Source of the DNA: Candidatus Parcubacteria bacterium
Lineage (GTDB): Bacteria > Patescibacteriota > Minisyncoccia > Phycocordibacterales > CAIJYI01
NCBI GenBank assembly: GCA_026395595.1
Contig: JAPLYL010000006.1
Coordinates: 12,146-76,145 of the forward strand
DNA: 64,000 bases
Reading direction: 5' to 3'
In this document: piece by piece, positions 56,113-63,112 of the stretch
Numbering within the stretch: position 1 is the stretch's first letter
Layout of the letters: the number at the start of each line of letters is the position of its first letter
Position numbers and translations under genes: made by a program
Notes under the pieces: generated by a model
The model's database searches: none
What the model was told of the DNA's origin: nothing
What the model saw: the letters and a program-made list of their open reading frames with translations, nothing else

Positions 56113-56703
56113 ATGTGTGATACACTGTATACCATCACACGCATGGAACGCGACGACCGACAACTTATCGCAAGCGCCATCGTCGGGGACGACGATGCTT
56201 TTGCTTTTCTCGTACACCGGCATCTGCCTGCCGTGTATAATTTCGCGTACCGTTTCGGCGGAAAGGAAGAAGCCGATGATATCGCGCAAGAAACCTTTTT
56301 CAAAATCTGGAAAAATCTCAAGAAATTCCGTCCCGAAGAAAATTTCAAAACGTGGATGTTTTCCATTGCCCGCAACACGACCATAGACCACATGCGCAAA
56401 AAAAGAGACATTACTTTCTCAAATTTTGAAAATGCCGACGGAGAGAATTTTTTTGAAGAAACCCTGACCGATACCGAACCGCTCGCCGACGAGATATTCG
56501 CTCGTGCTGAAAAAGAAAAACACCTGGAAAAATTTCTTGCCGAACTCCCCCCTCTCTATCGCGAAGTTCTTATTCTCCACTACCAAAACAATTTCACCTT
56601 TGAAGAAATAGGTCAGATTCTTAAAAAACCGATTCATACCGTTAAAAGTCAGCATCGCAGAGCGTTAGAACAGCTTCGGGGTCTCTTCAGTGCACCAAAA
56701 TAG
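56113..56703 (+). CDS. ECF-type RNA polymerase sigma-70 factor
   Basis: Region 2 (FLVHRHLPAVYNFAYRF...AQETFFKIWKNL) and region 4 (YREVLILHYQNNFTFEEIGQILKKPIHTVKSQHRRALEQL); probable start at ATG 56143. Confidence 0.75.
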   Translation: MCDTLYTITRMERDDRQLIASAIVGDDDAFAFLVHRHLPAVYNFAYRFGGKEEADDIAQETFFKIWKNLKKFRPEENFKTWMFSIARNTTIDHMRKKRDITFSNFENADGENFFEETLTDTEPLADEIFARAEKEKHLEKFLAELPPLYREVLILHYQNNFTFEEIGQILKKPIHTVKSQHRRALEQLRGLFSAPK

Positions 56704-56726
56704 CCTTTCATTCCGTACTATTCAGT

Positions 56727-57131
56727 ATGGATAAAAATCATAAAAAATTTCTTCCCGGACTGGCCAATATCATCCCTCCGAGAGAAGTCTATCATCATAT
56801 TCTTTTCCGTATAGAAACAGAGCGAGTTCGGTCCGCAAGAATACGTCTTGCCCTGTTTAGTACGGCTTCCTTGCTTGCAGGAGCGGCGTTTTATCCCGCC
56901 TTTCAATATGCGTTGCAGGGCATCTACCGTTCGGGCTCTTATGAATATATCTCTCTCATTTTCTCCGACGGAACAGCGCTTCTTCCTTATTGGAAAGAAT
57001 TTTTCTTTACGCTTATTGACGCTTTGCCGGTCTTTGAGATCGCTTTAATTCTTACTCTTGCTCTGGTATTTCTTGAGTCAATCAAATTATCCGTTAAAAA
57101 TATGCCGCGGGCTTTTTATCAATTCAATTAA
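56727..57131 (+). CDS. membrane protein, putative anti-sigma factor partner
   Basis: Begins 24 nt after the sigma gene; two or more TM helices. Confidence 0.4.
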   Translation: MDKNHKKFLPGLANIIPPREVYHHILFRIETERVRSARIRLALFSTASLLAGAAFYPAFQYALQGIYRSGSYEYISLIFSDGTALLPYWKEFFFTLIDALPVFEIALILTLALVFLESIKLSVKNMPRAFYQFN

Positions 57132-57147
57132 CCAATCAAAAATCTTT

Positions 57148-57639
57148 ATGAAATTCAAAAATTTTCTTCAATCAGACAAAGCAAAACATATTCTCACAGG
57201 AATCGGCATTGCCATTATCGCGCTCGTTATTTTTCAAGCGGGCATATTCGTCGGTTTCAAGAAAGCATCCTTTTCCGGACGTTTAGGGGATAATTATTAT
57301 CAGACCTTCGGTAACCGCAATTCAGAACGAGGGTTTCCGGAAATGCGCGGAATGGATTTGCCGAACACGCACGGAACTATCGGAAAAGTCGCAGTCATCG
57401 CTTTACCAAAAATAGTCGTCGCAGATAGAGACGGAGTAGAAAAAACAGTCCTTCTCAACGAAAAAACCGATATCCGCCGTTTCCGAGATTCCATAAAACC
57501 CGAAGAACTCAAGGCTGGAGATTTTGTAACCATCATCGGAGACCCCAACGATAACGGACAAATAGAAGCGAGACTCATCCGAGTTATGCCCGTGCCTCCC
57601 AGTGCTCCTTTTCAAGACAAACAAACGGATAATAAATAG
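57148..57639 (+). CDS. membrane-anchored hypothetical protein (paralog of 61663-62112)
   Basis: N-terminal TM, Gly/Arg-rich linker, ~80-aa C-terminal domain alignable with the 61663 protein (G.I...I.V.DR.G...V.L...T...L..G..V.I.G.PN..G.I.A..I.V.P). Confidence 0.5.
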   Translation: MKFKNFLQSDKAKHILTGIGIAIIALVIFQAGIFVGFKKASFSGRLGDNYYQTFGNRNSERGFPEMRGMDLPNTHGTIGKVAVIALPKIVVADRDGVEKTVLLNEKTDIRRFRDSIKPEELKAGDFVTIIGDPNDNGQIEARLIRVMPVPPSAPFQDKQTDNK

Positions 57640-57701
57640 AAAAATATCATCCTCATCTTTTTTCTATTTTCCTATTTTATTATTTTGCTATTTAAATACA
57701 T

Positions 57702-62112: not shown

Positions 62113-62126
62113 AAAAACAAAAATTA

Positions 62127-62166
62127 AAGGCGGTCATCTCAAGAGATGTACCGCCTTTGTTTTTCC
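62127..62166 (+). terminator. rho-independent terminator
   Basis: AAAGGCGGT-loop-ACCGCCTTT plus GTTTTTCC. Confidence 0.7.
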
Positions 62167-62554
62167 TCATGTGAGGAACTATTGAAGTTTTGCGCTCAAA
62201 TTCCGAGTCGAACCTTAGAATCCTTATTTCGTACAAGCTTGTCTATTTCTTTCCTTAGCTCGTGAGAGTAGCAAGTGTTGCTGCGAACAGAACGATTTTG
62301 TCGGCCTTCATTCAGGGTTCCGACACATATGCAAATGACTGCATAAAAATTTCAAATATCTTTTTACTATTTATTCCTTATTTAAAAGGATCAATTTTTA
62401 GGATCGTTTTTGGACTTTTACCCCATTTCGAAGATTACCATGCCCGCTATCCTCTTCTAGCTTATCCTCTGGGGGAACCTCACCTGTACCAAGTCATATC
62501 TATAACCTTTCTCCTCTCTTTAATCTGGAAAGAGTATAGCACTTTTATAACTTA

Positions 62555-62598
62555 TTGTCAATATATTATTGACAATACTATAAATAACGTGATACAAT
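62555..62598 (+). promoter_or_regulatory. putative promoter with overlapping palindromic operator (TTGTCAATA-TAT-TATTGACAA; -35 TTGACA, 18-nt spacer, -10 TACAAT)
   Basis: 21-bp near-perfect palindrome at 62555-62575 containing TTGACA, about 50 nt upstream of the C39-like gene. Confidence 0.45.
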
Positions 62599-62623
62599 GT
62601 ATTTACTTTAACACGGTATTTGT

Positions 62624-63112
62624 ATGATTAACGTTCCCTATTTTAAACAACAAACTCCATTTTCTTGCGGGCCGGCAACTCTCAATATGGTGTTTCTTTT
62701 TTATGGACTGAAAAAAACAGAAGAAGAACTCGCCGTTCGTTTAAGAACCAACAAACATGTCGGAACGCTCCACAGCGACATGATCCGCGTTGCACGTGAA
62801 GAAGGTTTTTATGTTTTTGAGAATGAAGACTCTTCCGTTGTAGAGATTGCAGGGCTCCTCAAAACCCATACTCCCGTTATCGTCCATTTCATCGAGCCAA
62901 GCGAAAACGACAACCATTATGCCGTCGTGGTGCAGGTAGACGAAACCCATCTTGTTTTCAATGACCCATGGAATGGAGAAAAAACCACTATGGAAATAAA
63001 CGACTTCATCACCCGTTGGTCAAGCGAACACACCATCGAAGACAACTGGCTCATGGCGATTTCCAAAGACCCCTTCTCCCTCGGCCGCCAATACTCCCCC
63101 GTGCGAAAATAA
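62624..63112 (+). CDS. standalone peptidase C39-like domain protein (double-glycine leader peptidase family, papain-like)
   Basis: VPYFKQQTPFSCGPATLNMVFLFYG (Gln/Cys motif), NHYAVVV (His), FNDPWNG (Asp/Asn) - the C39 catalytic signature in 162 aa. Confidence 0.6.
   Translation: MINVPYFKQQTPFSCGPATLNMVFLFYGLKKTEEELAVRLRTNKHVGTLHSDMIRVAREEGFYVFENEDSSVVEIAGLLKTHTPVIVHFIEPSENDNHYAVVVQVDETHLVFNDPWNGEKTTMEINDFITRWSSEHTIEDNWLMAISKDPFSLGRQYSPVRK

Follow-up and report, generated by a model that had tools for sequence, protein, structure and literature searches.

The closest described counterparts of the pump considered here are the YknWXYZ system of Bacillus subtilis, a member of the sigma-W regulon, and the Spr0693-0694-0695 system of Streptococcus pneumoniae, both of which comprise a periplasmic adaptor (membrane fusion protein, MFP), a MacB-type ATPase on a polypeptide of its own and a permease of the MacB_PCD/FtsX kind. 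We analyzed a 64-kb stretch of DNA from a Candidatus Parcubacteria bacterium (contig JAPLYL010000006.1; hereafter the window), in which a pump of this composition is encoded at positions 56113-63112, together with an extracytoplasmic function (ECF) sigma factor and a free-standing C39 peptidase-like protein; the locus continues to a GT2 glycosyltransferase gene (63245-63985). An earlier interpretation of this DNA, made from the letters alone (the sequence-only reading), had proposed that these genes form one dedicated system for the processing and export of peptides or proteins under ECF control. In our judgment, the locus probably consists of two independent units that are merely juxtaposed: a seven-gene ECF/pump operon and a monocistronic C39 gene.

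The resemblance to YknWXYZ extends to the link with an ECF sigma factor and to the presence of small accessory membrane protein(s) encoded alongside the pump, and the MFP orthologues share the beta-barrel and C-terminal Pfam domains of YknX (PF25990 Beta-barrel_YknX and PF25989 YknX_C). However, the sigma gene is here located inside the operon, and the accessory proteins are a protein with two transmembrane (TM) segments and two anchored OB-fold proteins, in place of the Yip1-type YknW. The adaptors also differ in size: YknX, MacA and Spr0693 are roughly 370-400 aa long, whereas the MFPs of this family have 500-640 aa, including an insert of approx. 260 aa and a Gly-rich tail. The MacAB-TolC system of Escherichia coli is similar in the fold and family of its permease and in having an adaptor protein, but in our case the ATPase and the permease are separate polypeptides, an outer-membrane factor is missing from the locus, and all scores lie below the equivalog cut-offs. 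Finally, the combination of a sigma factor, a small membrane regulator and an anchored extracytoplasmic protein beside an MFP-containing pump recalls CnrYXH, although there is no detectable sequence similarity and the pump is of the ATP-binding cassette (ABC)/MacB type, not of the resistance-nodulation-division type.

A seven-gene operon conserved across Patescibacteria

The eight genes of the locus and their domain assignments are real: all eight open reading frames (ORFs) were present at the coordinates of the sequence-only reading, and Pfam and NCBIfam scans confirmed the ECF sigma factor, HlyD/MacA-type adaptor, MacB/LolD ATPase and MacB/FtsX permease recognized there. Structures were analyzed by means of AlphaFold2 (AF2) models and Foldseek. 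The features of the operon are as follows.

56143..56703, + strand: ECF (group 4) sigma-70 factor, operon gene 1 (probable start; ORF open from 56113)
56727..57131, + strand: membrane protein of 134 aa with two TM segments, encoded after the sigma gene, where an anti-sigma factor would be expected
57148..57639, + strand: protein A; N-terminal TM helix, disordered Gly/Arg/Met-rich linker, C-terminal OB-fold beta-barrel (DUF5666-like)
57702..59504, + strand: MFP (periplasmic adaptor) of YknX/MacA type, 600 aa; HlyD_3, HlyD_D23, Biotin_lipoyl_2, TIGR01730 (143 bits)
59510..60220, + strand: MacB/LolD-type ABC ATPase, a separate polypeptide; ABC_tran 5.5e-33, best NCBIfam matches MacB, DarD, LolD
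60293..61516, + strand: MacB-type permease; MacB_PCD 5.2e-52 (residues 21-246), FtsX 2.2e-20 (287-400)
61527..61612, no strand: dispersed 86-nt GC-rich hairpin repeat with T-run, in the permease-to-protein B spacer; dG -40.6 kcal/mol, z = -4.8
61663..62112, + strand: protein B, last operon gene; TM anchor, Gly-rich linker and OB-fold as in protein A
62125..62160, no strand: bidirectional intrinsic terminator, closing the operon; dG -22.8 kcal/mol on one strand, -22.6 on the other

Protein A was chosen as the anchor of the survey because it is the most specific component of the module, and was searched for in GTDB genomes, one for each species. The search yielded 69 Patescibacteria loci from many lineages, in which neighboring genes were counted by tblastn with the window proteins (protein B by a profile search), loci with enough flanking DNA being regarded as evaluable. 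Genes in the same order and on the same strand were found for the sigma factor (57/63 evaluable loci), the 134-aa protein (62/69 loci), the MFP (61/65 evaluable), the ATPase (48/52 evaluable) and the permease (46/49 evaluable), and the protein B gene lay directly 3' of the permease gene in 32 of the 44 evaluable loci. Intergenic gaps within the module have medians of 9-59 nt, the permease-to-protein B spacer being approx. 59 nt (median) in other genomes. An identical array is carried by five metagenomic contigs whose flanks are wholly different and in which protein A identity falls to 34%. Since gene order, strand and short gaps are kept in unrelated flanking contexts, the segment 56143-62112 is a real conserved operon of seven genes across Patescibacteria, and the earlier view of seven co-oriented genes as a coherent module was thus correct. 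The terminator that closes the operon (z about -5.5, T-runs on both sides) is retained in two related contigs, L001 and L086.

This operon is so far undescribed: we regard it as a probable efflux operon linked to an ECF sigma factor, whose novelty lies in its accessory families. In the literature searched, nothing describes the module in bacteria of the Candidate Phyla Radiation (CPR), the 134-aa family or the function of DUF5666. PADLOC gave zero matches. L018 and L031, two contigs with the complete module, bear the labels Candidatus Magnetominusculus (Nitrospirota) and Acutalibacteraceae, probably because contigs of Patescibacteria were mis-binned.

The first gene product has the composition of an ECF group 4 factor (about 170-200 aa in this group), with sigma-2 and sigma-4 domains only (Sigma70_r2, 2.7e-22, residues 33-98; r4_2, 6e-13, residues 138-188), and its score with the ECF model TIGR02937 is 128 bits (cut-off 42.9). 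Because the orthologues are 185-197 aa long, its translation probably starts at Met11 (position 56143) rather than at 56113.

The 134-aa protein encoded by the second gene gave no Pfam, NCBIfam or PDB-profile match. Its hydropathy plot contains one strong and one weaker segment, while two clear segments are visible in its relatives. The family is large (1,444 cluster representatives, nearly all of 125-145 aa), and its most conserved parts are the second TM segment and an extracytoplasmic loop with the consensus SGFxxYxSLxFSD...YWKE...SLxESLP.

Proteins A and B are, as the sequence-only reading had proposed, true, if distant, paralogues: they are alignable over their full length (23% identity, E = 4e-7), and the family A profile detects members of family B. 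In the AF2 model of protein A, residues 75-148 form a seven-strand barrel (pLDDT about 90), for which Foldseek returned generic OB-fold matches only (RPA14/32, IF1, S1, PAN; all E > 1e-3). Both proteins are best described as DUF5666-like: their scores with DUF5666 (PF18914) are 21.7 bits (A) and 20.4 bits (B), below the cut-off of 27, their relatives score 17.9-23.5 bits, and a few close homologues carry a PF18914 annotation already. All 77 homologues of protein A come from CPR bacteria (Paceibacterota/Patescibacteria), and a protein of a 'Candidatus Parcubacteria bacterium' metagenome-assembled genome matches it with 100% identity. Both proteins possess Sec-type signal anchors, and their linkers are extracytoplasmic. 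The Gly-rich character of these linkers, noticed in the sequence-only reading, was confirmed; they are rich in Gly, Arg and Asn, contain GG, and are approx. three-fold enriched in Met (6.7% and 4.9% vs 2.2%).

The pump belongs, with its adaptor, to the MacB/type VII ABC superfamily and is predicted to be an exporter. The translated ATPase contains Walker A (GPSGSGKST), the LSGGQ signature and Walker B, and the hydropathy of the permease reveals four TM segments, with the extracytoplasmic MacB_PCD domain between TM1 and TM2. Against MacB (PRK10535) the permease scores 280 bits with the permease half and the ATPase 233 bits with the ATPase half, compared with an equivalog cut-off of 966; the score with MacA is 73 (cut-off 342). 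Since all of these values are far below the cut-offs, orthology of the pump with MacAB, or with any other named equivalog, can be dismissed. No TolC-like outer-membrane factor occurs in any of the locus gene tables examined.

The insert of the MFP is located between the two lipoyl half-motifs. In 52 loci, the C-termini of the MFPs (59400-59504 in the window) consist of a conserved Thr/Ala-rich segment followed by a Gly-rich tail of the form PSLFGGGG...R. This tail and the linkers of proteins A and B may represent a low-complexity feature shared by the extracytoplasmic parts of the system.

The spacers of the operon contain two kinds of repeats. The 86-nt hairpin element, called repeat-element copy B in the sequence-only reading, indeed has a second copy in the window (51862-51947, 92% identical). 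It was also found in L001 (13937-14005), L004 (7133-7175) and L006 (6667-6707), always in an intergenic position. It looks like a REP/MITE-like (repetitive extragenic palindrome/miniature inverted-repeat transposable element) terminator element specific to the lineage; it is an insertion of this lineage, foreign to the ancestral operon, and possibly acts as a partial terminator. The second repeat, a tandem CTATTTT motif that is significant within the window (4 matches vs 0.06 expected), occurs in both of the long spacers of the operon, upstream of the MFP gene (57660-57678) and of the permease gene (60257-60283), neither of which has an obvious Shine-Dalgarno sequence. The motif was considered as an internal promoter or operator and rejected, as it is not conserved: the spacers of relatives hold other lineage-specific short tandem repeats at the same positions.

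The C39 gene and its neighborhood

The closest described counterparts of the C39 protein are the peptidase domains of PCAT/AMS transporters (ComA, PCAT1, LahT; MEROPS C39) and a group of non-leader C39-like proteins (PeiR, C39_2, PA2778 family), of which PeiR is a stand-alone catalytic domain of similar size. The features downstream of the operon terminator are listed below.

62165..62530, - strand: ORF-free region with a conserved leftward promoter TTGACA-17-TATACT (TGcTATACT), a Shine-Dalgarno-like sequence and a conserved mini-ORF, MTWY(R)-stop
62556..62598, + strand: palindrome and rightward promoter TTGACA-18-TACAAT serving the C39 gene (11/12 matches, TG before the -10)
62624..63112, + strand: free-standing C39-fold cysteine peptidase-like protein, 162 aa, in a separate transcription unit
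63138..63171, no strand: hairpin terminator downstream of the C39 gene, perfect over 15 bp; dG -27.5 kcal/mol, z = -8.4
63245..63985, + strand: GT2 glycosyltransferase (Glycos_transf_2, 4e-24), first gene of a GT2/VTT(DedA)/GT2/PAP2 cluster; the window ends here

The claim that the 162-aa protein is free-standing and carries the full C39 signature was borne out. It matches PF03412 (Peptidase_C39) with 55 bits (cut-off 22), as well as C39_2 and C70, and contains no transporter domain. Its AF2 model (pLDDT 84.5, pTM 0.82) retrieved PeiR, ComA-PEP, PCAT1, LahT and CtaG in Foldseek, with TM scores of 0.65-0.70 (query-normalized) and up to 0.80 on ComA-PEP. In the alignment to the peptidase domain of ComA, Cys15, His98 and Asp114 occupy the positions of its catalytic Cys, His and Asp, and a Gln (Gln9/10) precedes the Cys. 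These Gln, Cys, His and Asp residues are conserved in all full-length homologues, which also share an invariant C-terminal extension (RWSSE...W.MA.S..FSLGRQY.P). All 24 close homologues inspected are 140-180 aa long and lack a transporter domain. Unlike the PCAT/AMS peptidases, the C39 protein thus stands alone, has a C-terminal extension, shows approx. 20% identity to them and has no double-glycine (GG) leader gene nearby. It has no hydrophobic segment or signal peptide in the hydropathy plot and is therefore probably cytoplasmic; in this it differs from PeiR, a phage lysin acting on archaeal pseudomurein, which has additional N-terminal wall-binding repeats. Its score with the PA2778 family is 56 bits (cut-off 150), and the PHROGs gave weak endolysin and ABC-transporter matches only. 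Some database calls of C39 homologues (P0022-P0024; 146-149 aa) begin at a Met further inside the protein, so that the catalytic Cys is missing from them; one of them (P0022; L006 9938-10441) is full length when the DNA is translated.

The homologues of the C39 protein were gathered separately from the module survey, starting from the protein itself (64-94% identical in one search and 40-83% in another); every one of them is short and free-standing. According to the sequence-only reading, the C39 peptidase would cleave the GG leader of a peptide or protein, possibly paralogue A or B, which the MacAB-like pump, controlled by the ECF factor, would then export. The intact fold and catalytic residues, the Gly-rich, GG-containing linkers of the paralogues and the position of the C39 gene next to the module, which recurs in L001, L083, L086 and L090, are in keeping with this idea. 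However, the C39 gene was found downstream in none of the 43 evaluable module loci, with no match anywhere in the 69 loci, and close homologues (64-76% identity) occur in contexts other than the pump. Homologues of similar divergence are found in no fewer than six other contexts, all devoid of MacAB genes, and adjacency to the pump is confined to a single narrow sub-clade. The pump is absent from 6.7-10 kb of sequence upstream of the homologues in L003, L004, L006, L007, L093 and L096, and no exporter neighbor is conserved across the homologue loci examined. Among the ORFs of the 64-kb window that encode 20-140 aa, none matches the GG-leader pattern. The paralogues bear Sec-type signal anchors instead of GG leaders, and their linkers are extracytoplasmic, whereas the putative peptidase has no signal peptide, which speaks against the proposal that they are C39 substrates. 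The protein thus has the fold and catalytic residues of a C39 peptidase, while both the pairing with a transporter and the nearby GG precursor expected of a leader-peptidase system are missing, and we regard leader processing at this locus as very improbable.

In addition, the operon and the C39 gene are separated by the bidirectional terminator, a gap of approx. 450 nt and a separate promoter. The palindrome reported in the sequence-only reading as an operator/promoter is present (62556-62576; 9-nt inverted repeat with a 3-nt center), as is the C39 promoter, the palindrome consisting of two back-to-back divergent TTGACA -35 boxes; it is not, however, conserved in L001 or L088. Because of the lack of co-occurrence in the 43 loci, the terminators and own promoter, and the variable contexts of the homologues, the C39 gene is predicted to be monocistronic and independent of the operon, and its adjacency would be a lineage-specific accident. 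A free-standing C39-fold gene beside an ABC exporter is therefore no evidence of a processing and export system, and the synteny points to an accidental pairing in this case.

The ORF-free region within the gap (62165-62530) contains blocks conserved in the window, L001/L002, L086, L088 and L085, and ends at the bidirectional terminator. It gave no credible Rfam match (gathering and E-value modes) and no tRNA or tmRNA. The single-sequence fold of the gap has a z of -1.9, the consensus structure of four sequences is weak, and a profile of the element matches the nearest relatives only. The region could be a small RNA, a leader-peptide transcript or a decayed gene, and is not part of the operon.

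The commonest neighbor of the C39 gene is the downstream GT2/VTT(DedA)/GT2/PAP2 cluster, found 3' of it in 9 distinct loci (the window, L001, L006, L007, L082, L085, L086, L089 and L094), some of them without the pump. In other genomes its neighbors include mraY/ftsW, L,D-transpeptidase and Mur ligase genes. These neighbors, and the fact that the best PDB match is the pseudomurein endoisopeptidase PeiR (sequence, 2.4e-5; Foldseek, 6.7e-8), provide a weak lead toward envelope or cell-wall metabolism. The C39 protein might accordingly work with this glycolipid cluster or in wall metabolism, as an amidase, isopeptidase or acyl-transferase acting on a precursor; the weak endolysin match and the structural matches to CtaG are in line with this, and C39-fold proteins with non-leader activities have been documented (PMC13642728). 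Nevertheless, C39 and GT2 are separated by the 15-bp hairpin terminator as well as by a promoter-like site, the linkage is absent in L003, L004 and L091, and homologues at 40-49% identity adjoin neither the pump nor the GT2 cluster. Moreover, a protein lacking a signal peptide could not reach the wall, and the linkage may reflect shared ancestry in a narrow clade. We consider such a role rather unlikely, although better placed than leader processing.

In L093 (5912-7221), the divergent C39 homologue (49% identity) directly follows a gene for a 264-aa signal-anchored protein with Cys/His C39-like motifs and is located downstream of a YkuD-type L,D-transpeptidase gene, these neighbor identities having been read by eye from the translations.

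Regulation and function of the operon

Operon membership and domain identities are observations; as to the substrate, the regulation and the part played by each of the three small membrane proteins, we infer the following by analogy with the sigma-W-regulated YknWXYZ and Spr0693-0695 systems (PMC4887032, PMC3498285, PMC5768738). In a bacterium without an outer membrane, the pump would use ATP to remove a toxic or amphipathic envelope compound, e.g. antimicrobial peptides, from the surface of the membrane and expel it via the MFP tube, and would be coupled to an envelope-stress sigma circuit. The 134-aa protein would regulate the sigma factor as a non-classical anti-sigma factor, protein A would be a co-sensor or accessory within a triad sensing envelope stress by a CnrYXH-like logic, and protein B would be an accessory of the pump.

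The genes for the sigma factor, the 134-aa protein and protein A were found without those for the MFP, ATPase and permease in L048, L059, L060 (8021-9483) and L061. Retention of the triad without the pump in these four genomes suggests that it is a self-contained regulatory unit. In L060 the triad is followed by a type-II NADH dehydrogenase-like gene.

Several observations weigh against this functional model, or against the separation of the two units. Protein B is not present in approx. one quarter of the modules. The 134-aa protein has no match to the classical anti-sigma domains (ASD, zf-HC2, RskA) and no PDB relative, and neither a classical anti-sigma domain nor a longer fused relative was found among the 1,444 representatives, in which only approx. 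38 residues are cytoplasmic. No ECF-type promoter (AAC-type -35, CGT-type -10) was detected upstream of the sigma gene or inside the operon, and housekeeping-type TGnTAnAAT promoters are present in 21 of 59 sigma upstream regions. No substrate is identifiable from the locus, and machines of the MacB family also perform non-efflux work (FtsEX, LolCDE). Finally, the adjacency of C39 and the module recurs in five related contigs, so that a functional link specific to this lineage remains conceivable.

The search for an anti-sigma identity of the 134-aa protein covered Pfam, NCBIfam, PDB profiles and, exhaustively, the representatives of its family; a faint Sigma_reg_N match (E = 0.069) came from a single family member. 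The promoter search covered 56-59 sigma upstream regions by means of dyads (4-mer, N15-20, 4-mer), k-mer enrichment and footprinting, a crude approach which may miss a divergent motif, and yielded only terminator T-runs, TATAAT or extended -10 elements, and start-codon context. The operon thus seems to be transcribed from extended -10 promoters of the housekeeping type, and the promoters lend no support to a control of the pump by the sigma factor, as claimed in the sequence-only reading. The TGnTAnAAT element lies 7-20 nt 5' of the sigma start codon in the window (56100-56143) and in L001, L014, L021, L023, L027, L043 and L044; such proximity to the start codon implies leaderless or near-leaderless operon mRNAs in several genomes.

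The CnrYXH-like layout beside an MFP-containing pump also raises the question of Cnr/Cus-like metal resistance, with the OB-fold proteins as CusF-type metallochaperones feeding the pump. The OB-fold ectodomains, the Met enrichment of the linkers and a His-Gly that is conserved where the barrel begins would fit this explanation. However, neither Met nor Cys is conserved within the OB domain, the tail of the MFP is not rich in Met, and PDB profile searches revealed no similarity to CnrX, CnrY or CusF. MacB-type ABC pumps are not known to export metals. With Met merely three-fold enriched in the linkers and no conserved Met/Cys in the barrel, the metal chaperone function was rejected, and metal resistance as a whole is highly implausible.

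Another explanation is that the module is a MacB-type mechanotransmission machine (FtsEX/LolCDE-like) which acts on or activates the anchored proteins A and B, e.g. in envelope remodelling or host attachment. This concept has been put forward for the MacB family (PMC5985334), and it would suit the MacB_PCD permease, the strict (A) or usual (B) co-conservation of the anchored proteins with the permease, and the failure to identify a substrate. On the other hand, a full-length MFP, present in 61/65 loci, is a component that exporters typically have, unlike FtsEX or LolCDE, and protein A also occurs with the sigma factor in the absence of the pump. We therefore find mechanotransmission improbable, if less so than metal resistance.

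For the preferred reading, in which an ECF/pump operon lies beside an independent C39 gene, the joint conservation, across many lineages, of an ECF sigma factor with three small membrane proteins and a MacAB-like pump probably signifies an important envelope function, because the genomes of Patescibacteria are very small and their regulators few; resistance to peptides of hosts or competitors and export at the host interface are candidates. More tentatively, the operon could be a Patescibacteria-wide three-component ECF device, with a minimal two-TM regulator and an OB-fold sensor, hard-wired to a MacAB-type pump with a long adaptor. If so, it is possibly a principal means by which these tiny episymbionts defend their envelope or export material at the host interface, and the 134-aa protein would represent a new class of anti-sigma mechanism. 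Were this unannotated family (more than 1,400 cluster representatives) assigned to sigma regulation, many genomes would gain an annotation.

Other repeats in the window

Repeats were also observed outside the locus. In the segment 35817-36152, a unit of 48 nt is repeated head to tail at least six times (64-100% identity between copies); the segment is probably a repeat-containing coding region. A further set of AT-rich repeats is located at 39221-40057, including 50-nt inverted arms (39221/39288), a 68-nt direct repeat whose copies are 735 nt apart, and a 32-nt inverted pair (94% complementary); they might mark the termini of some small element, mobile or regulatory.

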